Source of the DNA: a virus
Taxonomy: Duplodnaviria; Caudoviricetes
DNA length: 54,995 nt
Strand: one strand, 5' to 3'
IMG/VR virus record: IMGVR_UViG_3300027418_000012
Coordinates: 1-54,995 of that record
Under the pieces are notes generated by a model. That model did not search any database. It saw only the letters and a program-made list of their open reading frames with translations, and had not been told where the DNA came from. Positions within the stretch are counted from its first letter, which is position 1, and every line of letters begins with the position of its first letter. This document shows, one piece after another, positions 13,028 to 27,515 of this stretch. The position numbers and the translations under genes were made by a program.

Positions 13028-13415
13028 TCACTTAACAGGAAAATTTATAAAGAAAGGAGGAAAACTAGACTTTAGTAGTTTAGCGTCATCTAAACAGTTT
13101 GAATTATTTGTATCAAGTGTACCTGAACATAGCATAGTGGAGTTTTTCTACGAAGTTACTCATGATGATGGTACGCTTCCTCAGCTAGCCAAGTTACATG
13201 TAATGCTAAAACAATTAGCAACACATATTGGTGAGACTGTAGAGAATATGAAACTACTAGTAAAAGATAGAGCTGGTCTATGCATAGCCAGAGAGGTTGC
13301 AGGTAAAGAATACTTCTTAGCAAAAAGCTTTGCAGAATGTTCTAAAGATGAACTATCCCTTGCTATACAAGCAGCAATAGAAATTAGCCACGAGGTAAAC
13401 CATCCTCTAGTGTAG
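13020..13415 (+). CDS. NinB/Orf-like recombination accessory protein
   Basis: T..Q.AKLH.M...LA...G.T...MK and KSFAECSKDE patterns. Confidence 0.55.
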   Translation: MSNHLTGKFIKKGGKLDFSSLASSKQFELFVSSVPEHSIVEFFYEVTHDDGTLPQLAKLHVMLKQLATHIGETVENMKLLVKDRAGLCIAREVAGKEYFLAKSFAECSKDELSLAIQAAIEISHEVNHPLV

Positions 13416-13683
13416 GAGCTTCTAGTTCTTCTTGAACAGTTAATCCTTTACTATGAGCTACCACTTCTAAGTGTCTTACAAAAAAAGATAGAAATGCAAA
13501 GTGTTCAATCCATTCTTCAGGATATTGATTCTTTAGAATAAGATCTTGAGCCTTAGTAATTTCTTCTTCAGTTTTACCTTCTATAACATATAGAAGTAGC
13601 TTTTGTAAGTTAATTAAAGTGTTACCTCCCACCTCAATAGGAAATGTAGTATCTCTTTTAATTGCTGTATAAGTATTAGCCAT
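13384..13683 (-). CDS. Hypothetical protein on opposite strand (99 aa)
   Basis: Fills the gap between + strand genes and has its own TAnnTTTG element. Confidence 0.7.
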   Translation of the reverse strand: MANTYTAIKRDTTFPIEVGGNTLINLQKLLLYVIEGKTEEEITKAQDLILKNQYPEEWIEHFAFLSFFVRHLEVVAHSKGLTVQEELEAPTLEDGLPRG

Positions 13684-13700
13684 AGGTATATTTATTTATA

Positions 13701-13708
13701 CAAAAATA
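13701..13708 (-). promoter_or_regulatory. Bacteroidota -7 element for the minus-strand gene
   Basis: Reverse complement TATTTTTG, 17 nt upstream of ATG 13683. A second TAAATTTG lies at 13711-13718. Confidence 0.5.
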
Positions 13709-13717
13709 ATCAAATTT

Positions 13718-14434
13718 ATGTTACAAACTGTGGATCTTGCAGATATAAAATGCAAATTAATAGAAAAATTGAAACCATCAGGTTGGTCAAGTAAGCTTAA
13801 AGGCTTTGTACAATCATCTGATTTTGATAAGATTTTACAGAATTTATATGATTTAAGAGAGGCAGGTAAAAGATTTACTCCTCCTCTAAAACAAGTTTTT
13901 AGAGCATTTGAAGAATGCCCCGTAGACAAACTACGTGTAATTATAATAGGACAAGATCCTTATCCTCAGCTAGGTGTAGCAGACGGGTTAGCTTTCTCAT
14001 GTGGTAGCACAGAAAAACCTCAACCAAGTCTACGAAACATGTTTGAGGCCATAGAACAGACAGTATATCAAGAATTTCCTACTTATCAAGATCCAAATCT
14101 TACAAGATGGGCTAACCAAGGAGTGTTATTAATAAATAAAGCACTTACTTGTGAAGTTGATAAGGTGGGCTCTCACTATGATGTATGGAATGAGTTTTTA
14201 ATGTATGTATTAGATATACTAAACTTTACAGACAGCGGTTTAATCTTTGTATTACTAGGTAAACCAGCACAAGAGTTAGAAAGTTTAATAGGACCTAATC
14301 ACTACATTATTAAAGCTAGTCATCCTGCATCAGCAGCTTATACTAAAACAGTATGGGATTGCAAAGATCTTTTTAATCAGGTTAATGAGATTATTACAAA
14401 ATGTAATGGTCCACAATTCACAATCAGTTGGTAA
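13718..14434 (+). CDS. ung: Uracil-DNA glycosylase, family 1
   Basis: GQDPYP, GLAFS, PSL.N, WANQGVLL.N and SHP motifs. Confidence 0.95.
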   Translation: MLQTVDLADIKCKLIEKLKPSGWSSKLKGFVQSSDFDKILQNLYDLREAGKRFTPPLKQVFRAFEECPVDKLRVIIIGQDPYPQLGVADGLAFSCGSTEKPQPSLRNMFEAIEQTVYQEFPTYQDPNLTRWANQGVLLINKALTCEVDKVGSHYDVWNEFLMYVLDILNFTDSGLIFVLLGKPAQELESLIGPNHYIIKASHPASAAYTKTVWDCKDLFNQVNEIITKCNGPQFTISW

Positions 14435-14452
14435 TCAACTAAAAACAATTTT

Positions 14453-14872
14453 ATGGCAATTCAAAAAGAAAACGTGTCAATTGATGTCCAAGACATCATT
14501 GAATTATTACACAGTGGTTACACTTGGTTTAAGAAAGATGATCTTGGCTACGGCTCTATTCAAGAGAAGTTTAACGCTCTAGATATTCATATTAAGACTA
14601 TCCAGAAGCATCCTGAATTAGCAAATGTAGATACAATAGCTAAGGTATTTGTAATTACTAATAGAAATAAAACAGATAATGGATCAACAACCACCAATGA
14701 CATTAGTGTCAAACGAGATGAGATCAATTTGGGGGGCTTACCTAAGACTGATGACAGGAATACAAGATCTACAGATACAAGCATCCTATCTCAAGTCAAC
14801 AACGGAACTCCTGGAACTAGCACAGCAGAAAGTAGTGAACAAAATGATCTCTCAGCCTTTGCCAATCTCTAA
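14453..14872 (+). CDS. Hypothetical protein with disordered C-terminus
   Basis: ORF between ung and the ATPase. Confidence 0.7.
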   Translation: MAIQKENVSIDVQDIIELLHSGYTWFKKDDLGYGSIQEKFNALDIHIKTIQKHPELANVDTIAKVFVITNRNKTDNGSTTTNDISVKRDEINLGGLPKTDDRNTRSTDTSILSQVNNGTPGTSTAESSEQNDLSAFANL

Positions 14873-14876
14873 TCCT

Positions 14877-16277
14877 ATGAAACCTTTAAGACCTAGTCCT
14901 ACAATGAGTGCAACACAGTTTGCTGTAGGACGTCAATTAATAGGTAATGATAATAATATATGGGAAGTAACTGCTACATCAGCAGGTATACACAGATGGG
15001 TAAAAGCTAAATATGTTCAATCAGGTACTTTTCATCCTAGTGCATTTAACATACCTAGTACACAGATATCAAATATTAGCATTGACCCCAATGCTCAACA
15101 ATCATTTAAATACAAACAAAATAACATGTCTAAAGTAAAATCTATTACAAAAAAATCTACTCAAGAAGTGAGAACAATTGACACCTCTTTAATTAATAAA
15201 GAAGAAGTGTTTAAAATGCTAGCATTAGCAGAAGCTACAGGCTTACCCTGCTTATTAGTAGGTGCACCAGGTGTTGCTAAAACTAAAACTATAATTGACT
15301 ATGCTAAAGCATGGTTAAACAGAGACGGTAATATGACCGCAGAAGATTTTGCTAATAAAATCTACATACTAGAGACTGACGAAGGTACTAAAGCATCAGA
15401 GATTAAGGGTATGCCTGACTTAGGTAAGTTATTCACTGATAACAAGTATGAGCTTAACACTCCTATTGCTGATGCAGAGATTGTAATCATCAACGAGGTG
15501 GATAAAGCTAGCTCTGGTATCCGTAATGCTATGCTAGGTGTAATGAACGAGAAGTTCTTATTCAACGGTAAGCACAAGATCCCATGTAAGTGGAAGTTAT
15601 TTGTAGCTACCTGTAATGAGATTCCTAAAGATGAGACAGGATCTCCTTTCTGGGACCGTTTTATGTTGAAGATGACTGTAAATCGTGTATCTGCAGGTGA
15701 ATTAGCTAAATATTTTAGCAAAGGAGCTCGTAACTACAGAGAGAAGTTTTCTATTGGTGTACCTAATAAGCAAGAAATTGAGAGTTTAGAAGTACCGGCA
15801 AATAAATTAGAGAAATATCTTGAGGTGGGTTATCAGCATAGCTCAGATCGTACATTAACATTTGTACCTAGTCTGACTAAAGCAGTTAGTTACATTTGGG
15901 ATATCAGTCTTGATAAAGCTCTTGTAAAAACAGCTCAGATTATGATCTCACAAAATGCAGGTTCAGAATTACAAAACAAGTTGATGAGTCCAGAAGTTAA
16001 GGCAGTTATGTCTAAGGTAGAGATGTTACATTCTCATAGCTCTAATGAGCAATTAGAACTAGCTATAGCTGAAATTGAAAGCTTAATCAATACTTATACA
16101 TCTCGTGGTATTATGGATGAAGGTCAAGTAGACGAAATAGAATTATCTATGCAGTATATTTTACAAAATCACCCAGCTAGAGAAACTCAATTGACTGAAG
16201 ATTTTGAAGCTATGATGTCTGAAGCAGAAGTATTTGCTGATGTAGCACTTCAAAATGGTTCTAGTAATCCTTTCTAG
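14877..16277 (+). CDS. MoxR/RavA-family AAA+ ATPase with N-terminal extension (alternative start 15126)
   Basis: GAPGVAKT Walker A, IINEVDKA Walker B, NEK, ATCNEIP, WDRF; adjacent VWA gene. Confidence 0.85.
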   Translation: MKPLRPSPTMSATQFAVGRQLIGNDNNIWEVTATSAGIHRWVKAKYVQSGTFHPSAFNIPSTQISNISIDPNAQQSFKYKQNNMSKVKSITKKSTQEVRTIDTSLINKEEVFKMLALAEATGLPCLLVGAPGVAKTKTIIDYAKAWLNRDGNMTAEDFANKIYILETDEGTKASEIKGMPDLGKLFTDNKYELNTPIADAEIVIINEVDKASSGIRNAMLGVMNEKFLFNGKHKIPCKWKLFVATCNEIPKDETGSPFWDRFMLKMTVNRVSAGELAKYFSKGARNYREKFSIGVPNKQEIESLEVPANKLEKYLEVGYQHSSDRTLTFVPSLTKAVSYIWDISLDKALVKTAQIMISQNAGSELQNKLMSPEVKAVMSKVEMLHSHSSNEQLELAIAEIESLINTYTSRGIMDEGQVDEIELSMQYILQNHPARETQLTEDFEAMMSEAEVFADVALQNGSSNPF

Positions 16278-16300: not shown

Positions 16301-17824
16301 ATGGCACTAAGAAGTCTCAGTACAGGAAAGCAGTATAAGAATGTTTATACTATCCTAGAGAAAGTAAAGAAAGGAGAAATACAGTCTCATTACAAGAACG
16401 ATGATGGAGGATTATTTGGTAAGCTTAATTTTTATAAGAAATCAGATCTTATTAAACCTCACATGCATTATATAGATGAAAGAAGACTAGCCACTGTAGT
16501 AGATGCTCATCTTAATGACCAAAATAATACTACGGCATTCTATACTAAATTTAGTAGAAGTGTGGGATGTACAAGTTTACCAGAAGACAAAAAGCCTGAT
16601 TGGCAAGCATTCCAAAAAAAGATGACAGAAACATATCAAAAGTTTCCTAAGCACTTAAAGAATGACATCTTTAAAATGTTTTATCATAAGATGGATAAAC
16701 TAGATTTTGAAGAACGCACTGAAAGTAACTATACTCAGTATAAGTTTCTAGAGCGTTCTAATAATCCTGTAGGTAAGATCATGACTGAGACTAGTAGTCT
16801 TAAATCAGCCATATTTACCAGAAATCTAATGCATTATTACATTATGCAGATGACTATGATGGAATTTATAGATCCAGATGCTGCTAAACAATTAATGAGT
16901 GGTCTTAATGGTGAGTCAGACTTTGATAATCAAGGCATGGACGATCTTATAAATAAGATGTTAGATAGTAGACTATCTAAAAACATGCTAGATGATGCTA
17001 TACAAGAAGCTCAGAATACATGTAAGGCTATGGATGAAGCTATACCACAAGATCTTCAAGATGAGATGTTTAATAACGTCAAAGATGGAGGAGCTAATGC
17101 AGGTAAACTAAGTCCAGATTACATTAATCAAGTGACTGCTAATATTAGGAGAATCAATCTATCTATGGGGTCTCTTAAAGACAAGATTAAGAAGTTAATG
17201 GATAAGTCCAAGAACTACTTTTCTGCTAAGAAAGAAACTATCCAAGAAGATTTATTCAACTCTGATAATTTAGCAGGCTTAGATGAATATGTATTCTTAC
17301 ATCCTCAATTGAGGAAGTTCATGATTGAAGACATTATGATTAAGGATAGTAAGTCTATAGGTAAGATTAACATCTATATAGACATATCTGGTTCAATGTC
17401 AGACACATGTGGAGTGGGAGATATAGATGGAACAAGAATAGATAAGCTAGACTTTTGTAAAGCATTTGCACTTAAGATGCAGGATTTAGGAATGTTGAAT
17501 AAAATATATACATTCAATAATCATGTAAAAGAACTTAAGACAGATGTGTTTTCAATAGCTAATTTAACTACATGTGGCGGTACATCAATTAACACTGTGG
17601 TAGAGCATATTAAAAGACATGATGATAATGCACTAGTAATCACAGATGCTGAAGATGGATGCCATAGTTATTCAGAGAAAGCTTTCTTTATAGGTGTGAA
17701 AGGTGCAAACTTTAATCACTTTGATAAGAAGACTATACAGAAGTATTCTGAAAGCGGTCAAGTAGTAGTATTTGATGGTAACAGAATATTTAATGTTAAC
17801 ACAAAAGGTGGTATTACAAATTAA
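16301..17824 (+). CDS. VWA-domain protein (ViaA/CoxE-like partner)
   Basis: MIDAS DISGSMS, GGT, VITDAE. Confidence 0.85.
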   Translation: MALRSLSTGKQYKNVYTILEKVKKGEIQSHYKNDDGGLFGKLNFYKKSDLIKPHMHYIDERRLATVVDAHLNDQNNTTAFYTKFSRSVGCTSLPEDKKPDWQAFQKKMTETYQKFPKHLKNDIFKMFYHKMDKLDFEERTESNYTQYKFLERSNNPVGKIMTETSSLKSAIFTRNLMHYYIMQMTMMEFIDPDAAKQLMSGLNGESDFDNQGMDDLINKMLDSRLSKNMLDDAIQEAQNTCKAMDEAIPQDLQDEMFNNVKDGGANAGKLSPDYINQVTANIRRINLSMGSLKDKIKKLMDKSKNYFSAKKETIQEDLFNSDNLAGLDEYVFLHPQLRKFMIEDIMIKDSKSIGKINIYIDISGSMSDTCGVGDIDGTRIDKLDFCKAFALKMQDLGMLNKIYTFNNHVKELKTDVFSIANLTTCGGTSINTVVEHIKRHDDNALVITDAEDGCHSYSEKAFFIGVKGANFNHFDKKTIQKYSESGQVVVFDGNRIFNVNTKGGITN

Positions 17825-19103
17825 TTTTTGAACCTACCACCATAAATAATAGCATAGGAACTTGGGGATTAGTTGAAAGACTAGTCCTCAATCCTATGTT
17901 TAATTTAAAACGCTTGGTAAAAGCGTAGTCACTAGATACACCAGTGATAAATCCCATATCTTGGGAAACCACAAAATCCTTAGTATCAAATAGATACACA
18001 ACAGGACTCCCTGATACATATAGTTCAGGAGATAAGTTTAACCTCTTATTGACAGCAAAAGGTCTAGTATAAAATAAAAGAAGATTGTGCATTAGATTGT
18101 CTTTACTAAAAGACAAAGTGTAGTTGGCACCTGTAACACCCCATTTACCCATAGGGTAGATATAAGCATATGTTAAGAAACTAGAAACGTTTCCAAACAT
18201 CACTGCTGTTGTAAAACCAAAGTTAGATATAGATTCTAACTTCCCAGCATTGAAATTCATTTTAGTATATCTAGAAGAGACAACAAACTGTTTTAGATTA
18301 CTCCAAACCATACCACTTACGCCCCAGGAAGATGCTCCAGTCATAGAAGACTGAGATATTCCCCCGCTAAGTACTAACGCTATACTAGCGTCAACATTTT
18401 GACCTGCAGTTAAGTCAGAGTTAAATAAAATAGGATTCATCCTAGCCTGAGCTTTATTAGAGGATTTAGAATCCTTTTTACTGTCAGACTTTTTCTCTTC
18501 AGATTTCTTTTCAGACTTAGACTCTGATTTAGATTCAGACTTTTCTTCAGATTTAGACTCAGAACTACTTTCACTCTTAGATTCAGATTTAGACTCTGAA
18601 GATGAACTACTAGAACTTGACTCAGAACTTGATGATGAGCTACTGCTAGAACTAGCAGGTGCTGGAGCAGGGGCAGCAGCAGGTGCAGCAGGAGGAGGAG
18701 CGGCTGCTGCAGATGAGGCAGCGGCAGAAGCAGCTGAAGAAGCGGCACTAGAAGCCGCAGATGACGTTGCAGAGCTTACAGCAGCACTTACTGCAGCAGA
18801 GACAGCGTTGGCTGTAACTGTATTGCTAGTTTGTGCAGTTTGAGCAACAGAACAGGGAGATAATTTTCTATAGTCTTCATACACTTGATTAAGCCAAGCC
18901 TGAAATGCACCAGAAGATACATCAGCGGAAGTAAAAGTACGAGACTTATTATAAAAGACAATAGTAGTAATCCCATTGATAGGAATACTAAAAGTGCTAA
19001 CGACTTTTGTACAAGGGTCAACAAAAGTTTGTATAAGAGTTTGATTATACGCATAAAAAGGTAGTAATACTACTAAAATTAGAGCAAATATAAACTTTTT
19101 CAA
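17814..19103 (-). CDS. Exported protein: N-terminal domain, Ser/Ala/Pro/Glu/Lys linker, putative C-terminal beta-barrel
   Basis: Signal peptide then Gln; two Cys in the N-domain; ~130-aa low-complexity linker; alternating amphipathic strands to the C-terminus. Confidence 0.7.
   Translation of the reverse strand: MKKFIFALILVVLLPFYAYNQTLIQTFVDPCTKVVSTFSIPINGITTIVFYNKSRTFTSADVSSGAFQAWLNQVYEDYRKLSPCSVAQTAQTSNTVTANAVSAAVSAAVSSATSSAASSAASSAASAAASSAAAAPPPAAPAAAPAPAPASSSSSSSSSSESSSSSSSSESKSESKSESSSESKSEEKSESKSESKSEKKSEEKKSDSKKDSKSSNKAQARMNPILFNSDLTAGQNVDASIALVLSGGISQSSMTGASSWGVSGMVWSNLKQFVVSSRYTKMNFNAGKLESISNFGFTTAVMFGNVSSFLTYAYIYPMGKWGVTGANYTLSFSKDNLMHNLLLFYTRPFAVNKRLNLSPELYVSGSPVVYLFDTKDFVVSQDMGFITGVSSDYAFTKRFKLNIGLRTSLSTNPQVPMLLFMVVGSKINL
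18470..18800 (-). repeat. Low-complexity coding repeats (SAAVSAA, APAAAP, poly-Ser, SESK units)
   Basis: Visible in the translation and as recurring TTAGA(T/C)TC units in the DNA. Confidence 0.8.
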
Positions 19104-19211
19104 TCACTTTAACTTGTTTAAGATGACTAGATTAGATTTGATTAAAGCTGCAGTTTTAACTCCAGACTTAACTGATCTCATAGCTCTTTTCTTTTTCTTA
19201 GCGTTTGCCAT
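19104..19211 (-). CDS. Small basic peptide (35 aa), not in ORF track
   Basis: MANAKKKKRAMRSVKSGVKTAALIKSNLVILNKLK*; its stop abuts the TTG start of the next gene. Confidence 0.6.
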   Translation of the reverse strand: MANAKKKKRAMRSVKSGVKTAALIKSNLVILNKLK

Positions 19212-19223
19212 TGTAATTAAAAT

Positions 19224-20114
19224 TTAAAACTGAAAATCTGTTCCTATCATAAATAGGATTGGGTTACTCTTTTTGTAGCCAACTGATTCACTTAATTTAT
19301 CCCAAGTTGTATTATATCTGATATTAGTGTTTAATATAAATCTTTTAGTTATTTTCCAATCTACAGATGTACCGTAGTATAAGTCTAAATTGAAATCATT
19401 TAAGTACCCAAGATCAGATGCTGTTCCATCTTTAAATTGTTTGTAGATATCACTCATAGTAAATACTTGAGGTGATATATTTACTCTTTTTGTTTTAAAT
19501 GTATATGTATACATAGCCATACCTCTGTAAGTAATTTGACTTGATGCCGGCATTGTTGGGTATATTAAATCTACAAAGTTACCATCTATATCTACTGTAT
19601 ATTTTCCTTCCCATTCACCTTGGTAGGTCCCCCAGAATGTTTTAGAAGCAATTAGACTATAGCCAAAGGTTCCAAACTTTTTAGATCTAAATACATCTAT
19701 AAATGATAGTGTAATATCTTTCTGAAAATCAAAATCTGTTGAATAAAAAGATTGTATTGTAGTAGTTCTTGTATCTGTATTTCTGCTGAAACCATATCCA
19801 ACACCATAATAATTCCATACTGGGTTTATTGATGATGCAAATGAGTGTCCCCACTTACCATTATTAGATGACTTACTATATCCCAGATTCAGTGTGGTAG
19901 ATACTTGTTTACCAATTATACCCACTGATAGGTTTGATGATGAAAGAACATCTTTTGAAAAGTCAACATAGGATTGTAATATACCTAGGTTATTCCAATC
20001 ACCACTTTCTCCAAATAGTTCTTTAGGTGATAGCTGTAATGTATCAGGTTTTTGTACCTGTGCATTTGATATAAATCCAATCAGAACTAATAATATAGTT
20101 AATAAGTATTTCAT
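19224..20114 (-). CDS. Putative outer-membrane beta-barrel protein
   Basis: Signal peptide (SNA|Q), Tyr/Phe/Gly-rich alternating strands, C-terminal Phe (MIGTDFQF) as a BAM beta-signal. Confidence 0.7.
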   Translation of the reverse strand: MKYLLTILLVLIGFISNAQVQKPDTLQLSPKELFGESGDWNNLGILQSYVDFSKDVLSSSNLSVGIIGKQVSTTLNLGYSKSSNNGKWGHSFASSINPVWNYYGVGYGFSRNTDTRTTTIQSFYSTDFDFQKDITLSFIDVFRSKKFGTFGYSLIASKTFWGTYQGEWEGKYTVDIDGNFVDLIYPTMPASSQITYRGMAMYTYTFKTKRVNISPQVFTMSDIYKQFKDGTASDLGYLNDFNLDLYYGTSVDWKITKRFILNTNIRYNTTWDKLSESVGYKKSNPILFMIGTDFQF

Positions 20115-20830
20115 TACTTAGTAAATATTCCTTTTTTAATCATTCTATCTAAGATTCTAGCACACGCTATATCTAGGGCTTTCTTCGTAGCAATAGATAT
20201 AGTGGATTGATTAAACTTCACTGGGTCTAAAGAAGCATCAGATAAACCTGAAGTCTCTTTAGTAGTCTTAGCCTCACCAAGCCCAGAGGCAGAAATAATG
20301 GTTGCTGTCTCAGCATCTGTAAATCTAACTTGTAGACCAATACGTGTTACCATCATTTGTTTGGTATCACCCTTAATATAAACAGACTCGTCTTCTGATA
20401 TAGAATAATCATAGCACTCAATAGTAACAAAATACTTAGCTAGGTTAATTTTACCTCTACCGTCTAGTTTATTCTCAGAGATGCCCGATTGTGAAGCTTG
20501 AAACTGCTTTACCATACGGTTTTTAATCTCTGTCTTATCCTCTGTAAACTTGAACCTATTAAGATTCTCTAAATACTCCATAGAAATGTTAGCTACGCCT
20601 AATCCTACACGCTTTTCTTTAAGCTCCGGATACATTTCATACATCTCATCTGATATACCCGCTTTAAGGATTTGTATAGGTATTTGTACACCTTCATAGT
20701 CTAAAAATTGTGATATGTCTATAGCCTTTTCAAAGCTAGCTTTATAATTCTCAGTTTGAGTCTTAGCTATCTGAGCATTACTGCTAATAGTTAATAGTAA
20801 ACCTGTTATAAAAATTAGTATGTTCTTCAT
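20114..20830 (-). CDS. CsgG/HfaB-like (curli assembly/transport fold) exported protein
   Basis: Signal peptide; GLGVANI..EYL...NRFKFTE, then IGLQVRFTDAETATIISASGLG pattern typical of the CsgG/FlgT/TolB-N fold. Confidence 0.7.
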   Translation of the reverse strand: MKNILIFITGLLLTISSNAQIAKTQTENYKASFEKAIDISQFLDYEGVQIPIQILKAGISDEMYEMYPELKEKRVGLGVANISMEYLENLNRFKFTEDKTEIKNRMVKQFQASQSGISENKLDGRGKINLAKYFVTIECYDYSISEDESVYIKGDTKQMMVTRIGLQVRFTDAETATIISASGLGEAKTTKETSGLSDASLDPVKFNQSTISIATKKALDIACARILDRMIKKGIFTK

Positions 20831-21045
20831 TTAGATTTATTTATAGATCTGGACCAATATATAAAAGAGAGCCAGAAGCATCCGGAAAGGAAATAGAAAG
20901 TTATATCTGCAGCCCAATATGAACCTGTAGCGTCCATAATCAGCTTGAAGAGGAAGTCGTAGCCAAACGGCAGAAAAAACATGGCTAATAGTAGGGAAGT
21001 ATCTTTGTAAAAAGTAAATCTTTTTATTCTGTCTTTGTAATTCAT
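20827..21045 (-). CDS. Small membrane protein, 2 TM
   Basis: Two hydrophobic helices; overlaps the start of the next gene by 4 nt. Confidence 0.7.
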   Translation of the reverse strand: MNYKDRIKRFTFYKDTSLLLAMFFLPFGYDFLFKLIMDATGSYWAADITFYFLSGCFWLSFIYWSRSINKSK

Positions 21046-21069
21046 CAGGGTCCATGGGAGTTAATTAAG

Positions 21070-21651
21070 TTAACAATGTTCATCCTTGATCTTACCACAG
21101 TGGATACATTCATAGTCTCCATCATGGTCTATATCTGCAAACACATGCTCACACTGTCTGTGTTCTTGATGCTCAAACTCTAATTTCTTAAGCTCAATCT
21201 CATGGTGATGCTGTTCAGCCACTTTATCAGCTTCAGCTTTAACTACATGATCAATCTTAGTTTGTTCAGACGCTCGGCCCGCAGCAGCAACAAATGCATC
21301 AGGAATTAATGGAGCATATGGTTTGTTAGACTCTTTAATGTCATTAACACTACCTATACTAACACCATCTTCCTCGTCCATTTTCTGTACAAGCATCTTA
21401 TCTTTATCTGTATCAGAAAACCAATAGTCTATAATCTTACCATAAGAACCAATAAAGGCTCCTAATAATAACATAAGTAATTCTTTCCATTCACCGGCCA
21501 TAACAGCGTTATTAGATACAGCTACGAATATTCCAGCTATAATCATAATAAATGTTCCTAGTACTAAGCCAGTAATGTACCAGCGTCTAGTCATCATTTT
21601 ACCTAGTAGTTCTTTAAATCCACCAGATTCTGGTTGTTTTTTATCTTCCAT
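21070..21651 (-). CDS. Membrane protein with 2 TM helices, His-rich segment and C-terminal CxH/CxxC metal site
   Basis: TM1/TM2, IIDYWFSD motif, QHHHE, CEH...CIHC. Confidence 0.7.
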   Translation of the reverse strand: MEDKKQPESGGFKELLGKMMTRRWYITGLVLGTFIMIIAGIFVAVSNNAVMAGEWKELLMLLLGAFIGSYGKIIDYWFSDTDKDKMLVQKMDEEDGVSIGSVNDIKESNKPYAPLIPDAFVAAAGRASEQTKIDHVVKAEADKVAEQHHHEIELKKLEFEHQEHRQCEHVFADIDHDGDYECIHCGKIKDEHC

Positions 21652-21678
21652 AAAACTTTTTTAGTTCTTAATAATATA

Positions 21679-21978
21679 TTACCATTTTGGAGCTTCTTCT
21701 TTAAACTCATCACCATCTTTTTTAGGTTTAGCAGGAGCCGGTTTAGGATCTGCAGCTTTCTGATTAATAATAACAGTTTTACCTCCAGCAGGTTGAGACT
21801 GCTGATTAGAGTTAGTAATGTTAATTACAGGTGCAGCCTGTATAGGAGCAGCTTTATCTTCTCCACCAAATAAGGTTGAGCCTAACCAAGCCCCACCAGC
21901 CGTTACAACTGTAGCTATAGTACCTAATATTGTTTTTTTTAGACTAGAGCCCGTTGATTCTTGTTGTTCTTCTGACAT
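21679..21978 (-). CDS. Single-TM protein with Pro/Gln-rich tail
   Basis: ILGTIATVVTAGGAWLG anchor. Confidence 0.7.
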   Translation of the reverse strand: MSEEQQESTGSSLKKTILGTIATVVTAGGAWLGSTLFGGEDKAAPIQAAPVINITNSNQQSQPAGGKTVIINQKAADPKPAPAKPKKDGDEFKEEAPKW

Positions 21979-21983
21979 AAAAT

Positions 21984-22358
21984 TTATTTTATAATTATTG
22001 GATGTTTAACTTCTTTACCTGCTATATCTATAAAGATTAAATCATAATCCTTTTTAGGTAATGCAGATAGGTCATATACCTTTTTAGTAATAATATCAGT
22101 GGCTGTAAAGCCCTCTGTTTTAACAGCCTCATCTTTTCCAAATGGAATTACTTGTACTGAATACTTAGCTCCCGGAGTGGTAACAAACTCCACTGTAACA
22201 ACATTACCAGTTTGACCTATAGACTTTATAGATGTAGCTGTAGATTTAATACCTAAATCAATGGTATTCATTATTACAGGAACATCCACCTTTCTACAGC
22301 TTAACGCTAATAGTGTTACTAAAAACCCTAACCCTAAAACTTTGTCTATTTTTCTCAT
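21984..22358 (-). CDS. Lipoprotein with Ig-like / T9SS-CTD-like domain
   Basis: Lipobox-like LALS|C; C-terminus YDLSALPKKDYDLIFID...KHPIIIK. Confidence 0.65.
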   Translation of the reverse strand: MRKIDKVLGLGFLVTLLALSCRKVDVPVIMNTIDLGIKSTATSIKSIGQTGNVVTVEFVTTPGAKYSVQVIPFGKDEAVKTEGFTATDIITKKVYDLSALPKKDYDLIFIDIAGKEVKHPIIIK

Positions 22359-22360
22359 AG

Positions 22361-24487
22361 TTAGAAATTGTTATAACCTGTTAATTTAATTTGTGAAGTA
22401 TTTAGATTAATACCTAATTGATTTCCTTTAGCATCAGAAGCGTCCATAGTTTGTGACACTTTAATAGCTGTTAATATATTCACTCCTTCTCCTATAGTGC
22501 TAAACTTAAGTTTAAACGGAACACTTACACCAGTGAGAGAAGCAGACTTGTTCTGATCTAATGCTCCAAACTTTACACGACCATCTTTTGTATTAGCAAA
22601 TACATACCATGTAGCAGGTACTGTTGGAATTAACTCTTCAAACTTTATCTTAGCAGGATCAAACGTAAACTCAAACTGTAAACCACTTACATTTAAACCC
22701 TTAGTATCTAAACCTACAGGTATTTCTATAGTGTTACTTGTTACAGTTGAATTTGTTAAGTTTACATCTACAGCACTAATATCATATGGAGTGTTAATCC
22801 ATCCCCCAGTAGCTTGCACTTGAGTAGCCATAGTCTTAAATACAGTGTTTGTCTGTAAACTATTAATAGCATTAGTCTGTACAGAAGATGTACCCCCGGA
22901 AGATACAATCACCTGAGAAGAGTGAGATCTGTTTACATCAGCCCATAGAAGATACTTAAGATCTAATATAGCATTAGTACCTAAAGCTCCTGTTTTAAAA
23001 TAAGCATGTGGTGTTGTAATATCCTTCCAGTTAGATGTAGTAATAGCTCCCCAAGAGCTGTTAGGATCTACATCAAATACAAATTCAGACTTAAAAGAAT
23101 AATCTGTACCATTTGCTCTTATGTAAGGAAGGTATGTAGAAGTGTTATCAGAAGCTTTAGTAAATGTAGAAGGCACTCTATATTGTGCCCAGGTAGCATC
23201 AGCAGATAAATATTCTATAGGTCCAGTGTATAAATCAAACAATTGTATACTTCTAATACTACTAGGTGTAACACCTGTAGGGAATTTTCTCATATCTAAG
23301 TATAGTGTACTATTGCTAGTACCAACAGATACATAAGACCATTCCACTTGACCACCAACACTCATTACATCAGCAGCTTTCCAAGTAGGAACACTTCTAT
23401 AACTAGTGCCTGCTCCTGCAGAAGTATAAGTAGTAGGTAATTTAAATAATGTATCTATTCCTGCAACCTGAGCTAGTAATCTAGGAAGGTCACCCCCATC
23501 TATTTTACTGTTGTCATTAATATCTGCAGCCAATAAAGACTGTCCAGTTTTTAAATTCTGACCGTTAGATCCGTCCAGACCCATAGAAGTAAACTCTGAT
23601 TGAGCTGTAGTAAAATCTGATATAGTGATTGCACTATTGTATATAGTGTAAAGCTTATCCATATCATGCATAACACTAACATCATACACTTTGTTAGCAG
23701 CTAATAAAGATTGATTAACATCAACCGCTCCTGTAGATGTAACACTAAACATTTGACCTGTTTTAGCAAGTGTGTCATAGAAGAAAACTTTTAAAGGGGA
23801 AAGATTATATAAGTTAGAGTTTACATCTACATTAGCTGTTACATACTTACCAAAGTTTTGGTTCATTATAACAGAAGTAGATAATGGAGTTTCCATTAAA
23901 GTAGCTTCTTGATTTCCTGATCCATTCCATGCAGATACAAAGTTTAACTTAATAGGATTAAATGTATATGCCGTAGAAGCAGCTTTTAATCTAAATGTAA
24001 TTTTAACAAGAGCATCATAACTAGTATAAGGCATTGCCGAATTAGTAGACCAAGTAAGTGTACTTCTTAAAATAGCATAAACATTGGTAGTACTATAGTT
24101 ATAATTAGCATATTGATAATTAGTAGTACCATTTGTAGTGGTATTATTATTATTACCTGACGTAGCAGGAATAAAGTTATAACCTGGATAGTTATAATAA
24201 GAAATAGTAGGTGATGAATTCTGAGGAAGAACACCACCATTACCACCAGTACCTGTATGTGCAACAGTAACTAATTCAAAGTTATCTTTATCATACTGAA
24301 TATCAAATAGTAACTGACGGGTAGTAGAGTTACTATTACCGTTAGCATAAATAACATAATCAAAGGTTGTACCTCTATCTAAAGATGCACCACCTACTGA
24401 TGTAGCAGCTTTAAACTTGATTTGGCCGTAAGATAGTGTCACAAATATTGTAAAAATTGTGACAAGAAACAGTCTTAATTTACTCAT
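22361..24487 (-). CDS. Exported cohesin-like / dockerin-like multidomain protein (708 aa)
   Basis: Signal peptide (SYG|Q); N-terminal LFDIQYD and C-terminal IEIPV...VSGLQFEFTFDP cohesin-like segments; Ca-binding loop ADINDNSKIDGGDL. Confidence 0.65.
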   Translation of the reverse strand: MSKLRLFLVTIFTIFVTLSYGQIKFKAATSVGGASLDRGTTFDYVIYANGNSNSTTRQLLFDIQYDKDNFELVTVAHTGTGGNGGVLPQNSSPTISYYNYPGYNFIPATSGNNNNTTTNGTTNYQYANYNYSTTNVYAILRSTLTWSTNSAMPYTSYDALVKITFRLKAASTAYTFNPIKLNFVSAWNGSGNQEATLMETPLSTSVIMNQNFGKYVTANVDVNSNLYNLSPLKVFFYDTLAKTGQMFSVTSTGAVDVNQSLLAANKVYDVSVMHDMDKLYTIYNSAITISDFTTAQSEFTSMGLDGSNGQNLKTGQSLLAADINDNSKIDGGDLPRLLAQVAGIDTLFKLPTTYTSAGAGTSYRSVPTWKAADVMSVGGQVEWSYVSVGTSNSTLYLDMRKFPTGVTPSSIRSIQLFDLYTGPIEYLSADATWAQYRVPSTFTKASDNTSTYLPYIRANGTDYSFKSEFVFDVDPNSSWGAITTSNWKDITTPHAYFKTGALGTNAILDLKYLLWADVNRSHSSQVIVSSGGTSSVQTNAINSLQTNTVFKTMATQVQATGGWINTPYDISAVDVNLTNSTVTSNTIEIPVGLDTKGLNVSGLQFEFTFDPAKIKFEELIPTVPATWYVFANTKDGRVKFGALDQNKSASLTGVSVPFKLKFSTIGEGVNILTAIKVSQTMDASDAKGNQLGINLNTSQIKLTGYNNF

Positions 24488-25125
24488 TTTTTATCTTCTA
24501 TTATCTTGGTTACTAATGAATTACATGCTTTCTTTAAAGCACTTGATAGGTTTTGATTGTTAAACTTACCTCCCTCATCTACAAGTAATGTAGACATAGA
24601 GATTTCATCTGCAGACTCTTCTACTAAGAATTTCTTTTCTAGCTTGCCGTCTTTATAATAAAATCCCTGCAATCTAATTACAACGGATTCTTTATTCTTA
24701 TGTATTATAGATAGACTAGATTGTGTCTTTAGAACATCTAAATAAATTATATCTACCTTTAACATGTTCTTTGATGTAGGATCTAAAGAGATTTCTCTTT
24801 CTTGAAATACCTCTTCTAGGATGTTCTTAACACCAAACTCTAATTTTCTGTTACCAGCAAGATTACCTATCTGTACCTTGTTAGTGATAGCTCCTATAGT
24901 AATGTCTTTAGGGCCTTCATATGAAATATTACCAGGGCTGTTTTTAAATGTCCCGTCAAACTTCCAATTAAACTCATTAGACATCTGCTGAAGCTTTTCC
25001 TGATTACCAGAAAACTCTAAGTATACAGAATAGAACATTAAACCTATAGCAAAGATTAACCATGCTCCTACAAAAGTTAAAAAACCATAAAATATATACT
25101 CACGTATCTTATATAGCACTGTCAT
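24484..25125 (-). CDS. Membrane-anchored CsgG-like/TolB-N-fold protein
   Basis: N-terminal TM; LEFGVKNILEE and C-terminal LSSALKKAC parallel VGLGVANISME and IATKKALDIAC in 20114..20830. Confidence 0.5.
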   Translation of the reverse strand: MTVLYKIREYIFYGFLTFVGAWLIFAIGLMFYSVYLEFSGNQEKLQQMSNEFNWKFDGTFKNSPGNISYEGPKDITIGAITNKVQIGNLAGNRKLEFGVKNILEEVFQEREISLDPTSKNMLKVDIIYLDVLKTQSSLSIIHKNKESVVIRLQGFYYKDGKLEKKFLVEESADEISMSTLLVDEGGKFNNQNLSSALKKACNSLVTKIIEDKK

Positions 25126-25143
25126 CTCTTAAATTTTTGCAAG

Positions 25144-25170
25144 AAAAAAGGGTAGAAATTATCTACCCTG
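25144..25170 (-). terminator. Rho-independent terminator (minus strand)
   Basis: AGGGTAGA-TAATT-TCTACCCT followed by a T-run on the minus strand. Confidence 0.7.
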
Positions 25171-25281
25171 TCCTCTATATTTACTAATTTTTTTAGCCTT
25201 AGGGCCAGAAGTTTTGTAAGCTCTCCCTGTTTTACGCTTACCAAAACTGATCTTACGACTGTCTGATTTTACTTTAGCCAT
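25159..25281 (-). CDS. Small basic peptide ending in KYRGQGR (40 aa), not in ORF track
   Basis: MAKVKSDSRKISFGKRKTGRAYKTSGPKAKKISKYRGQGR*; A-rich leader. Confidence 0.7.
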   Translation of the reverse strand: MAKVKSDSRKISFGKRKTGRAYKTSGPKAKKISKYRGQGR

Positions 25282-25298
25282 TGTGGTTTTTTTAAATA

Positions 25299-25916
25299 TT
25301 ATACAAGTAATGTGTGAAACTCTTTAAAATGTTTGATACGATCAGCTAAACCAATAGTACCACCATTAACTCTTTTTGTGATCTTTGTAACCACTTCATC
25401 AGTGGCACCTGTATCTGCAATTTCATTAAGTTTATTCTTAGACCAGAACCATGCTGCAGAAGTTAGAGCATGTGTTGAAGCTACTGAATCAGGATTAACT
25501 GACATATCTACACCAATTGATTTACCAAATGCTGTATAGTTATCTTTACCAGTTAGCTGAATGTAACCACGGCCTCTAAATTTATAACCATCACCAGATG
25601 CTTCAGCACCGTTACCCATACGTCCACCATATACAAGATTTGCAATCTTCTCAGGCTTTTTAGCATAAGCAGCTGCTTTAGGTTCATCAATTGTACCGTC
25701 TGGACGCTTAAAATACTTTTTAAATATACCTACTAAGCCTTTAGCAGAGTAGTTAAGGTTTTCTTGTGTAACTCTAAATCCACCAGATTCATGACCAGCT
25801 TGAGCTAAGAAATGAGATAAACGTAATGCAGTGGTAACACCAAACTTTTCTTGTATAGAAGGAATCTGAGCAATAACTGTATCAGGAACATGTCCTTTTA
25901 AACGAGATAGGTCCAT
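25299..25916 (-). CDS. Endolysin, glycoside hydrolase family 19
   Basis: HFLAQAGHES, ENLNY, FRGRGYIQLTGKDNY, SAAWFW and VNGG.IGL.DR motifs. Confidence 0.93.
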   Translation of the reverse strand: MDLSRLKGHVPDTVIAQIPSIQEKFGVTTALRLSHFLAQAGHESGGFRVTQENLNYSAKGLVGIFKKYFKRPDGTIDEPKAAAYAKKPEKIANLVYGGRMGNGAEASGDGYKFRGRGYIQLTGKDNYTAFGKSIGVDMSVNPDSVASTHALTSAAWFWSKNKLNEIADTGATDEVVTKITKRVNGGTIGLADRIKHFKEFHTLLV

Positions 25917-25918
25917 GA

Positions 25919-26089
25919 TTAAGATTTAGGTTTGTAATATCTTTTTTTCTTTTTAGGAGCTGCTTCTGGTTCAGATGCAACTACTACTTGTTTAGCTTTA
26001 GGAGCTTCTTGTTTAGCTACTGGAGCAGCAACTACTGCTTTTGCAGGAGCTGAAAACAAACCTTTAAAAAACGCAATAATTTTCTTCAT
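25919..26089 (-). CDS. Small Ala/Lys/Pro-rich protein with amphipathic N-terminus (56 aa), not in ORF track
   Basis: MKKIIAFFKGLFSAPAK...PKKKKRYYKPKS* exactly fills the gap between flanking genes. Confidence 0.65.
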   Translation of the reverse strand: MKKIIAFFKGLFSAPAKAVVAAPVAKQEAPKAKQVVVASEPEAAPKKKKRYYKPKS

Positions 26090-26090
26090 A

Positions 26091-26711
26091 CTATTTCTTT
26101 AATTTTATCTTCCAATAAGATTGAATACCATAAGTGATAGGACCGTTAATTTCAGTACCTATATTCAATCCATAAATATGATCTTTTTTATTCTTTAATA
26201 ACAATCCAGCACTAGCTCCTGTAATTCCAAGAGTTTGATTACCATTTATACCACCACCCAAAAACATTTGAGTCTTAGGCTTTTCATAATGCTGTATAGT
26301 TACAGTGTTAGTTATTGTAGGAATCTTATAGTTAGATCTCACTGATCTACCTCTAAGACTATTCTGGTTCACTGTATCTGTAATAGCTACATAACCAAGG
26401 GTATCTATTCTAATAGTATCTTTAAATTCTACAAGAGCCATATACTTACCTAATAAGTCATTATACTGAGCTAAAAGCTTAGGATAATTAGTATCAGCTA
26501 TATATTCTGGAGGAGTGGCAATAGTGTCATGTAACACCTTACCCTTCAAAGTCATTGTCTTATAAATAGTTGTATCATGTACAGACCAACTAGTATCATG
26601 TACAACAGTTGTATCTGATTTCTTACCGCTAAAGTTTACATAGCCACAACCGCCTTGTTGAAAGAACAACACTACAATTAAAATAACTATAATTATACTA
26701 AGATACTTCAT
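26091..26711 (-). CDS. Putative spanin-like lysis protein
   Basis: N-terminal TM/lipoprotein-like signal, DTT repeats, C-terminal beta strands; lies between holin and endolysin. Confidence 0.55.
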   Translation of the reverse strand: MKYLSIIIVILIVVLFFQQGGCGYVNFSGKKSDTTVVHDTSWSVHDTTIYKTMTLKGKVLHDTIATPPEYIADTNYPKLLAQYNDLLGKYMALVEFKDTIRIDTLGYVAITDTVNQNSLRGRSVRSNYKIPTITNTVTIQHYEKPKTQMFLGGGINGNQTLGITGASAGLLLKNKKDHIYGLNIGTEINGPITYGIQSYWKIKLKK

Positions 26712-26946
26712 TTGACTTCTTTTTAAATGAGAACTTGTCTGCAGTATCACCACCTATAGCAGCTATACATATAAACATTACAGCATCTACTAAAGCGTCA
26801 GAAGGTTTAATATCTCCATGACTAAAGCTATTAGCTGTTAATGTTATACATAAGAATAACGCACACATAAAGCCTACAACAGGCTTAATGGATGTAGAGC
26901 CACGCTCATCTTTAAAAAGGTCTAAAGCCCAGTCTTTAAAATTCAT
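26698..26946 (-). CDS. Putative holin (2 TM)
   Basis: Two TM helices, charged termini, position in the lysis cassette. Confidence 0.6.
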   Translation of the reverse strand: MNFKDWALDLFKDERGSTSIKPVVGFMCALFLCITLTANSFSHGDIKPSDALVDAVMFICIAAIGGDTADKFSFKKKSNEVS

Positions 26947-27221
26947 TTTCTAAATTTAAATTTGTTATCAACTAAGACAGCATATATAGTCTCTTCTTCT
27001 CTTTTAGGAATAAAAGGTGAAGGGATTGTATTACTAGTCTTAAACATTTGACGTTCTATGTTATCAATACGGGTCTTGTCTATATTAGACTGAGCCATTA
27101 ATAACTTTACATCAGATTTAATCTCGTTTACATCATTCCAGATGAGTAAACTAACTAAGGATACAAGTGTTGGGAATATCCAAGCTTTAAATGTACCTAT
27201 AGAAGGATTGTCTTTAGTCAT
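26943..27221 (-). CDS. Single-TM coiled-coil protein (lysis-associated?)
   Basis: TM followed by heptad pattern. Confidence 0.6.
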   Translation of the reverse strand: MTKDNPSIGTFKAWIFPTLVSLVSLLIWNDVNEIKSDVKLLMAQSNIDKTRIDNIERQMFKTSNTIPSPFIPKREEETIYAVLVDNKFKFRK

Positions 27222-27233
27222 TTTTAGTTAAGA

Positions 27234-27515
27234 TTATGCTGTTTTTAACACCTTAAACTCATACACTGATCCTTGAGGCTTTACTAAGCTGATAGTCAAT
27301 GAGTTAGGGATGATTTTACCAGTTGAATCTTTACGTACAAAATAACGTAAGCCTGAAGGTTGTTTAACCACTGCTTGTCCAGCACCAGCTGCTACGTTTT
27401 GAGCAGGGATACTAATACTATCTGCAGGAATGTTACGTGGTGCCTCAACAGACATCATTGTACCCGGAATAGGGAAGCCTAAGGCGTCTTTTTGGGCATA
27501 AAACTTTTTAGCCAT
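27234..27515 (-). CDS. Hypothetical protein (possible virion protein)
   Basis: First gene of the minus-strand operon. Internal duplication: FYAQKDALG.PIPGT / YFVRKDSTG.IIPNS. Confidence 0.7.
   Translation of the reverse strand: MAKKFYAQKDALGFPIPGTMMSVEAPRNIPADSISIPAQNVAAGAGQAVVKQPSGLRYFVRKDSTGKIIPNSLTISLVKPQGSVYEFKVLKTA

Follow-up and report, generated by a model that had tools for sequence, protein, structure and literature searches.

A mobile cassette of predicted envelope proteins, including a divergent CsgG-family protein, in Bacteroidota phages

Phages are known to encode proteins of the cell envelope. Pelagimyophages and the Methylophilales phage Melnitz carry CsgG and CsgF without curlins (PMC9004378), proteins that Porphyromonas phages would secrete under the Q-rule were put forward as possible modifiers of the Bacteroidota outer membrane (PMC10367356), and outer-membrane proteins of the beta-barrel kind (OMPs) have been catalogued by Yuan and Chen in huge phages, many of them from freshwater (bioRxiv 10.64898/2026.10.24.761521). 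Here we describe a cassette of nine genes for predicted envelope proteins, among them a CsgG-like protein that we call B238, at positions 17814-25125 on the minus strand of IMG/VR virus record IMGVR_UViG_3300027418_000012. The whole stretch analysed, 54,995 nt, is referred to as the window, and all coordinates are positions in it unless another locus is named.

The cassette has an invariant core, the trio p99, B238 and bar429, and a variable periphery consisting of a large secreted cohesin/lectin protein, the LptE/PelC-like protein A213, the lipoprotein lipo124, the small membrane proteins tm193 and tm72 and a further probable barrel, bar296. It is mobile between unrelated phage backbones, and its linkage to lysis genes varies. 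Our preferred explanation, which we put forward tentatively, is that Bacteroidota phages carry it as an accessory cassette for building a scaffold associated with the envelope and for displaying a cohesin or lectin protein at the cell surface.

Layout of the cassette

The minus-strand genes from 17814 to 27515 form one co-oriented block, as judged from the layout of open reading frames (ORFs). Replication genes lie on the flanks of this block, and its upstream part encodes small transmembrane proteins and an endolysin of the glycoside hydrolase family 19 (GH19) type. The nine cassette genes are tightly packed, with overlaps or gaps of 0-120 nt. The features are as follows.

24484-25125, minus strand: A213, an N-terminal transmembrane anchor and a predicted domain of the LptE/PelC/CsgG/FlgT superfold
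22361-24487, minus strand: coh708, a 708-aa protein with a Sec/Q-rule signal for secretion and a C-terminal cohesin domain
21984-22358, minus strand: lipo124, a lipoprotein with a beta-rich domain of ~90 aa
21679-21978, minus strand: p99, a single-pass inner-membrane protein
21070-21651, minus strand: tm193, two hydrophobic segments and a Cys/His-rich C-terminal tail
20827-21045, minus strand: tm72, a small protein with two hydrophobic segments
20114-20830, minus strand: B238, a divergent CsgG-family fold with a Sec/Q-rule signal
19224-20114, minus strand: bar296, a probable outer-membrane beta-barrel
19104-19211, minus strand: a 35-aa basic ORF between bar296 and bar429
17814-19103, minus strand: bar429, an N-domain with two Cys, a linker and a probable beta-barrel
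25149-25169, minus strand: a terminator-like hairpin with an 8-bp stem and a T-run, a consensus match only
25159-25281, minus strand: a 40-aa basic ORF just outside the cassette, after the endolysin and before the terminator-like hairpin
25299-25916, minus strand: the GH19-type endolysin, given as context outside the cassette (Pfam Glyco_hydro_19, E 3.2e-10; phrog_181, E 6.7e-70)

Read from sequence, each of the nine products is marked by a Sec signal, lipobox or hydrophobic helix, with a single transmembrane helix at the N-terminus of A213 and of p99. Gln comes next after four of the Sec signals (coh708 ..SYG↓Q, B238 ..SNA↓Q, bar296 ..SNA↓Q and bar429 ..YN↓Q), and in the family alignments this residue is invariant or nearly so. 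Such a Gln is the Q-rule documented for Bacteroidota (PMC5837995, PMC10653852). An earlier description of this DNA, made by a model from the letters without database searches (the sequence-only reading), had pointed to nine co-oriented, tightly packed genes with envelope signals, to their place downstream of lysis genes and to the Gln after four signals. Each of these points is borne out, as is the general picture of a phage-borne block of envelope proteins, and the one small basic ORF that it mentioned is probably the 35-aa ORF.

The same reading took the phage to be crAss-like, and sequence matches agree: the phage is placed there because an ORF of 1818 aa at 49428-54995 on the minus strand (1855 aa if open-ended) matches 74 phage records, only crAss-like phages, including the RNA polymerase (catalytic) subunit g066 of phi14:2 (E 2e-20). 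By name, the matches comprise 36 uncultured phages, 27 Bacteroides phages, 2 Cellulophaga phages, 1 crAssphage, 1 Kehishuvirus and a few others. The IMG/VR record, from a freshwater phage of Bacteroidota, is estimated to be 42% complete. Contigs from 4 RNA runs (4 studies, freshwater or riverine) map to the cassette and its flanks at 90-100% identity, which speaks to presence in RNA libraries only. A scan for sigma-70 promoters gave 35 sites against 48.8 expected, with a consensus that is not informative for Bacteroidota promoters.

Recurrence on other phage backbones

A relative of B238 is encoded in 513 of 526 pattern-matched IMG/VR stretches, and among 6259 candidate protein clusters 5427 match B238 at E≤1e-3. 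Most of the long contigs measure 100-131 kb. The analysis went on with the best 80 loci, which are all 79-100% identical in B238, and 49 of these have full flanks, defined as at least 6 kb upstream and at least 2.5 kb downstream. Within the full-flank set p99 is present upstream of B238 and a bar429-like gene after it in 49/49 loci. A213 and the cohesin/lectin protein are each found in 48, tm193 in 42, lipo124 in 37, tm72 in 25 and bar296 in 6 of the 49. The genes for p99, the bar429-like protein, A213, the cohesin/lectin protein, tm193 and lipo124 all lie on the B238 strand, and gene order is conserved across loci. The genes co-occur in many genomes, as the apparatus of the sequence-only reading would require, and the block is not a chance arrangement. 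Because the partner proteins are far more diverged than B238, at 26-80% identity, this synteny does not merely reflect near-identical DNA.

The module is also found in a cultured phage. Flavobacterium phage immuto, with a genome of 160 kb, encodes in succession a C-type lectin (gp013), gp014, a cohesin protein with a sorting domain of the type IX secretion system (T9SS; gp015), a p99-like protein (gp016), a protein 54% identical to B238 (gp017) and a protein with the bar429-type N-domain (gp018). Replication genes surround the immuto module, which is ~8 kb away from the endolysin. Contigs of 11-55 kb represent a marine clade at 35-38% identity; in 6 of its 8 loci the gene right after that of a CsgG-like lipoprotein encodes an N-domain protein, and the remaining two loci are cut off. 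This pair is preceded by a transmembrane protein, a signal-peptide protein of 281-291 aa and a protein of 758-992 aa with Cohesin and Por_Secre_tail matches, both sub-threshold; in one locus (L093) the set stands between portal and head genes. Across these lineages the recurring core is a transmembrane protein, a CsgG-like protein and a two-Cys N-domain protein in different genomic contexts. Since the immuto and marine contexts differ, linkage to the endolysin is not conserved.

Variants of the module contain further genes. Two marine loci have a 95-aa 4Fe-4S ferredoxin gene between the transmembrane protein and the CsgG-like lipoprotein (L095 7710-7997 and L097 7709-7996; Fer4 E 2.2e-11 in L097). 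Some freshwater variants carry a 282-aa ORF and a 2-oxoglutarate-Fe(II) oxygenase (E 1.3e-7) between B238 and the bar429-like gene (L053 8961-10559), and in L053 a ClpB-like double-AAA ATPase is encoded downstream (13115-15178).

Relatives in bacterial contexts look different. The relative P0302 led to 7 loci in Desulfobulbaceae-like and other metagenome-assembled genomes (MAGs), where the CsgG-like gene stands beside LpoB-like and FlgT_N-like genes and where neither p99 nor the N-domain partner is present; a search of bacterial contexts with relative P0146 gave no loci. One Desulfobulbaceae MAG (L088 2374-8448) has a tandem array of LpoB-like, CsgG (E 1.1e-8) and FlgT_N-like (E 2.8e-6) genes with several lipoprotein-like neighbours, an uncharacterised bacterial system, as we read it, of periplasmic ring-type proteins related to the phage protein.

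These genomic contexts bear directly on the main rival of a surface-display cassette, namely a device for lysis or egress. Such a device would carry out the outer-membrane step of lysis in phages of Bacteroidota: p99 in the inner membrane and bar429 or lipo124 in the outer membrane would bridge the periplasm via B238, and once the endolysin had cut the peptidoglycan the membranes would be disrupted or fused, or lysis timed. The cassette of the window lies on the same strand as, and immediately downstream of, the transmembrane proteins and the GH19 endolysin, although the terminator-like hairpin, which falls between the 40-aa basic ORF and A213, parts it from them. An endolysin is found within 8 kb in 38 of the 49 full-flank loci, on the same strand in 27 but on the opposite strand in 11; the immuto module, moreover, is ~8 kb off the endolysin among replication genes, and the marine L093 set lies between structural genes for portal and head. 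A p99 anchored in the inner membrane with a periplasmic tail, next to the lipoprotein lipo124, fits such a device, yet by direct reading the tail is Pro-rich and not coiled coil, and 7 kb of sequence with cohesin/lectin domains is far beyond the needs of known spanins or disruptins. Lysis timing has also been proposed for the CsgG/CsgF of phage Melnitz (PMC9004378). On balance we consider a lysis device unlikely.

B238 and its partner proteins

B238 of the window has no Pfam match on its own, and its assignment comes from its family. An exhaustive HMMER search with B238 returned 206 representatives at E≤1e-3. Among 38 relatives, Pfam CsgG matches 14 (best 1.9e-17) and LpoB 6, and the cluster of one relative is named CsgG/HfaB family. 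An alignment of 229 columns joins the profile of the family to E. coli K-12 CsgG (hhalign 93%, E 3.5e-7). An AlphaFold2 model of B238 (pLDDT 81.4) retrieved CsgG chains as all ten best Foldseek matches (E 1.6e-7, TM-score 0.47-0.55). CsgG also came first when the model was compared with 48,161 chains by VIA-align, at Z 12.5 (rmsd 3.3 Å over 179 residues), with PelC next at 9.7, and the best viral fold match in BFVD was a phage protein named CsgG (E 2.8e-7). By profile and by predicted fold, B238 is thus a true but divergent CsgG-family protein, in keeping with what the sequence-only reading had said of it. Profile searches of PDB sequences with alignments A1, A2 (B238), A3, A4 (bar429) and A7 gave chance or low-complexity matches only.

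Two features that define the CsgG channel appear to be missing from B238. Its signal ends in ..SNA↓Q rather than in a lipobox. A Cys after the signal is found in 0/8 rows of the freshwater clade, and [GAS]C within the first 35 aa is absent from 52 of 55 unique B238 orthologues; in the 38 rows of alignment A2 a post-signal Cys is present in 25 by eye and in 18 by strict regular expression, and the marine and bacterial relatives are lipoproteins. B238 therefore lacks the N-terminal lipoprotein signal of CsgG. The regions aligned to the two membrane hairpins of E. coli CsgG are shorter by ~5 and ~10 residues, the hydrophobic fraction at hairpin positions 145-149 is at most 0.11, and Glu148 is found in 29 of 36 rows; two amphipathic membrane hairpins per protomer are thus not apparent from the sequence either. 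B238 seems to be a CsgG-family protein stripped of both anchor and membrane hairpins.

Pfam and NCBIfam gave no match to CsgE, CsgF, CsgA or CsgB at E≤0.1 in the 16 proteins of the minus-strand block; the sequence-only reading had likewise recognised neither curlin nor CsgF. Because the defining features of the curli secretion system were looked for and are absent, the cassette is not a member of that system. With no Cys to take a lipid anchor, and with polar hairpins of reduced length, B238 gives no support for a curli-like pore.

A true secretion pore had been the proposal of the sequence-only reading, which envisaged a phage-built trans-envelope apparatus that might serve aggregation, superinfection exclusion or release. 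Here a B238 oligomer would serve as a CsgG-type outer-membrane channel for an unfolded phage substrate, such as the N-part of bar429, which is rich in Ser/Ala, or the cohesin protein, and a surface scaffold would follow. The CsgG-family assignment by profile and fold is what such a pore would call for, as are the three strands of 16-18 residues that protrude from the core of the model and the lipoprotein nature of the marine and bacterial relatives, but the B238 clade itself has no lipobox and its polar hairpin regions, with their conserved Glu, are shorter than those of E. coli. The bar429-type protein, always adjacent and with a long, low-complexity and probably unfolded region behind its N-domain, recalls a targeting signal with an unfolded substrate; an N-domain of disulfide type would nevertheless sit badly with a narrow channel, in relatives the cohesin protein bears a signal for the T9SS, and CsgE, CsgF and curlin were not found. 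With anchor Cys missing and hairpins shorter and polar, the pore is not the best reading, and we judge it quite unlikely.

Some distant relatives of B238 are fused to other domains (P0214, P0218, P0239 and P0247). In three of them the C-terminal region looks caspase-like by eye, and in one the B238-like part follows a Ser/Thr-kinase-like region and then a transmembrane segment, again by eye.

The second candidate for a CsgG-like protein, A213, is less specific. Its domain of ~140 aa (residues ~72-213) was modelled with a pLDDT of 73.6, behind a long N-terminal helix (aa 2-38) and with no lipobox; some orthologues have short signal peptides in place of this helix. The best Foldseek matches are Cj1090c, HpaA, LptE and PelC (E 1e-6 to 1e-5), CsgG ranking 40, and VIA-align scores are tied between PelC (Z 12.7, rmsd 2.1, 110 aa), the FlgT ring (12.4), CsgG (12.4) and LptE-like proteins (12.2-12.3). 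A weak Pfam match is to Lipoprotein_16 (E 5.9e-4). The model suggests a generic two-layer alpha/beta fold of the LptE/PelC/CsgG/FlgT kind, for which no single family can be named because the Z scores are tied. The outer-membrane lipoprotein anchor of the LptE/PelC class is absent from A213, and tblastn against cultured phages gave no match. A sequence kinship between A213 and B238 was considered and rejected (BLASTP E 0.016 over 24 aa; hhalign 8%), none being detectable. Of the two CsgG-like proteins that the sequence-only reading had named, only B238 is specifically so; A213 cannot be separated from LptE, PelC and FlgT.

The two barrel candidates are paralogues, as bar296 and the C-domain of bar429 align over 198 columns (A6 against A4; hhalign 96.8%, E 3.1e-10). 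Behind its signal peptide, bar429 has an N-domain of ~70 aa with two invariant Cys 53 residues apart, a linker of ~130 aa and a C-domain of ~205 aa. The linker varies in length and is rich in Ala/Ser, then Ser, then SESK/EEKK. The Cys pair suggests that the N-domain is a folded, disulfide-bonded periplasmic domain, and hhalign recovers this conserved domain from immuto gp018 (98.4%) and from the marine clade (97.1%). Strand counting by Kyte-Doolittle moment was uninformative for barrels, and a period-2 hydrophobicity test against column shuffles was used instead, giving z 4.1 for bar296 and z 3.8 for the bar429 C-domain, with the other module proteins at ~0. The C-terminus of bar296 is ..FQF with an invariant final F, and that of bar429 ends in L. 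The nearest named ESM clusters of bar296 are outer-membrane barrels at 0.93, a chance-prone score and a lead only, and for bar429 the leads are KdgM, OMP_b-brl, Tsx and OmpG, with scores of 0.92-0.93 that are equally prone to chance. Among relatives of the barrel proteins Pfam OMP families matched only once (DUF5777 in 1/38, E 6.9e-4). The two beta-barrels of the sequence-only reading stand on signal peptides, periodicity and paralogy, and have no backing from a curated OMP family beyond that one match; sequence makes it probable that bar296 and the bar429 C-domain are outer-membrane beta-barrels. A kinship of bar296 or bar429 to the 281-aa signal-peptide protein of marine locus L096 was rejected (hhalign 2-3%).

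Least supported, and in our view very improbable, is an uptake or permeability module in which the barrels are phage-made porins importing nutrients or macromolecules and the LptE/CsgG-like proteins plug or gate them: huge-phage OMPs adjoin transport genes (bioRxiv 10.64898/2026.10.24.761521), macromolecule import is one proposal for pelagimyophage CsgG (cited in PMC9004378) and the ESM leads run toward KdgM, Tsx and OmpG-type porins, but those scores are chance-prone, Pfam and NCBIfam scans found no transporter or binding-protein genes in the cassette, and the cohesin/lectin proteins and long tethers would be left unexplained.

The cohesin domain of coh708 lies at aa 585-686 and matches Pfam Cohesin (PF00963) at E 4.7e-4 (20.8 bits against a gathering score of 24.1); its relatives match in 30/34 cases at E≤0.01 (best 1.4e-8), and 6/34 have Lectin_C instead of or besides Cohesin. 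The sequence-only reading had called this a cohesin-dockerin protein. The cohesin half of that description stands, whereas Dockerin (PF00404) matched neither coh708 at E≤0.1 nor any of the 34 relatives at E≤0.01. By sequence reading coh708 has an EF-hand-like D-x-N-x-N loop, and such loops occur singly, ~190 residues apart. A second, N-terminal cohesin was considered and is unsupported (BLASTP of aa 20-200 against 560-708, E 0.056). In immuto, gp015 has both Cohesin (36.7 bits; gathering score 24.1) and the T9SS domain Por_Secre_tail (PF18962 / TIGR04183; 34.6 bits; gathering score 27), and gp013 matches Lectin_C at 3e-15; the cohesin-type protein of marine locus L096 gives a sub-threshold Por_Secre_tail match of 23.5 bits. 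Because the cohesin protein of relatives such as immuto carries a T9SS sorting domain, the sequences point to export by the host T9SS rather than by the CsgG-like protein.

The remaining proteins are small. In lipo124 the lipobox Cys21 is invariant (24/24 sequences), which upholds the lipoprotein named in the sequence-only reading, and LPAM_1 matches 4 of the 24. A T9SS-CTD-like domain in lipo124 was not accepted, Por_Secre_tail matching just 2/24 relatives at E 0.016, a lead only. An alignment of 26 p99 sequences, immuto gp016 included, displays an acidic N-tail, the transmembrane helix, the motif APVIN, which is invariant, a stretch rich in Pro and Lys, and a conserved motif at the C-terminus whose last residue is an invariant Trp. 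Read directly, the tail is Pro-rich and of low complexity, with no coiled coil; the C-terminal motif would be docking-like, carried on a disordered, Pro-rich periplasmic tail. For tm193 there is a weak match to phrog_9990 (E 0.003, aa 22-89). The stop of the 35-aa basic ORF abuts the TTG start of bar429, and the 40-aa basic ORF has tblastn matches in 22 of the 49 full-flank loci. Both ORFs are very basic, and each may encode a cationic membrane-active peptide or a nucleic-acid binder.

Several neighbouring genes were also noted. On the plus strand, an AAA-type ATPase (14679-16277; phrog_19600, E 1.3e-16) and a 507-aa protein (16301-17824) with a DxSGS motif resembling, by eye, the metal-ion-dependent adhesion site of von Willebrand factor A domains form a pair that converges on the 3' end of bar429 and adjoins the cassette in 21-25 loci. 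On the minus strand, a 220-aa protein in the lysis part of the block (26091-26753) starts with a hydrophobic segment that ends in ..GGC, and its C-terminus is beta-like and rich in Gly; in further lineages, L034, L039 and L041 among them, its homologue directly follows the bar429-like gene, and the protein may belong to the envelope cassette. A giant ORF of 1640 aa (44493-49415, minus strand) has a weak exonuclease PHROG match.

Proposed role and comparison with known systems

These data allow us to propose, tentatively, how a cassette for an envelope-associated scaffold with surface display could work. The proteins would first be exported by Sec, and the BAM machinery would then place the barrels into the outer membrane. 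B238 would act as a periplasmic scaffold beneath the outer membrane, probably ring-shaped, held from the outer-membrane side by the bar429 N-domain on its long tether and from the inner-membrane side by the p99 tail, with A213 and lipo124 giving additional anchoring. The cohesin/lectin protein would be delivered to or kept at the cell surface, in relatives via the host T9SS. The outcome would be an altered surface of the infected cell, that is receptor masking, superinfection exclusion or adhesion, and would involve no curli-type channel.

Four points weigh against this explanation. In this lineage the lysis genes immediately precede the cassette on the same strand, an arrangement that fits a lysis role. 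A T9SS sorting domain was found in 0/34 coh708 relatives at E≤0.01, and coh708 has no NCBIfam match. The freshwater loci are at least 79% identical in B238, such that common descent explains part of the synteny and inflates the counts. Finally, the B238 model is a monomer, and its hairpins may yet assemble into a membrane barrel.

A more specific and doubtful proposal concerns the trio alone. Together p99, B238 and bar429 could constitute an undescribed trans-envelope machine specific to Bacteroidota phages, in which a soluble ring of CsgG fold is tethered to both membranes, through the p99 tail and the Ser/Ala-rich tether of bar429. Such a machine would have been repurposed from a secretion channel, either for the outer-membrane step of lysis, as a spanin substitute, or for keeping out the DNA of superinfecting phages.

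Phages of Bacteroidota, the crAss-like ones included, belong to the most abundant viruses in gut and water. Little is known of how they deal with the outer membrane of the host, be it in exit, exclusion or surface change, and classical spanins have seldom been recognised in their genomes. The cassette is very common in freshwater metagenomes and crosses phage lineages. Flavobacterium phage immuto, with strain LMO8 as its host, represents the cassette in culture, which makes the cassette's role directly testable. If the display scaffold proposed here is correct, B238 would be a natural case in which the fold of a secretion channel has been put to new use as a scaffold in the periplasm.

Among described systems, E. 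coli CsgG (PF03783; PDB 4uv3, 6l7a, 6lqh) is homologous to B238 over nearly the full length and has the same predicted fold, but at ~13% identity; B238 differs from it in having no lipobox Cys, shorter and charged hairpin regions and no CsgE, CsgF, CsgA or CsgB beside it. The CsgG of pelagimyophages and Melnitz shares with B238 that it is a phage CsgG-family protein without curlin subunits, outside the curli context. Here, in contrast, there is no CsgF and no lipid anchor, the hairpins are shorter and polar, and the hosts are Bacteroidota rather than SAR11 or OM43. The partners differ as well, being p99, the N-domain/barrel protein, the cohesin/lectin protein and the LptE-like protein.

PelC-PelB, LptE-LptD and the H-ring of FlgT, in which a periplasmic alpha/beta module cooperates with a barrel or ring of the outer membrane, resemble the cassette in fold (Z 12.2-12.7 for A213 and 8-9.7 for B238) and in that the genes adjoin those of barrel-type proteins. 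A213 is held by a transmembrane helix, however, not by a lipid, and a Pfam scan found no homologue of PelB or LptD. The T9SS cohesin cargo of immuto, gp015, is likewise a cohesin-domain protein encoded directly upstream of the trio of p99-like, CsgG-like and N-domain proteins, although coh708 has three times its length, a cohesin domain placed right at the C-terminus and no detectable sorting domain.

Spanins of the Rz/Rz1 type and TraT-like surface-exclusion lipoproteins are phage or plasmid proteins, anchored in the inner and outer membranes, whose site of action is the periplasm or the cell surface. The TraT decamer (9e2v) shares the superfold, at Z 7.4 with B238 and 9.8 with A213, values within the spread of the whole superfold; no sequence relation to spanins or TraT is apparent, and sizes and domain sets differ. 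Set against a two-component spanin, p99 has the transmembrane anchor but a Pro-rich tail, lipo124 is a lipoprotein, and the cassette is not consistently linked to the endolysin from one lineage to another.

The OMPs of huge phages are, like those predicted here, phage-encoded outer-membrane barrels with envelope-related neighbours; they come from genomes of >200 kb, against crAss-like genomes of about 110-131 kb here, and the main text of that catalogue has 0 mentions of CsgG, cohesin, LptE or curli (bioRxiv 10.64898/2026.10.24.761521). No description of a cassette of this composition was found in the literature. Together these comparisons place the cassette as a novel composition within the known class of phage-encoded envelope modules.

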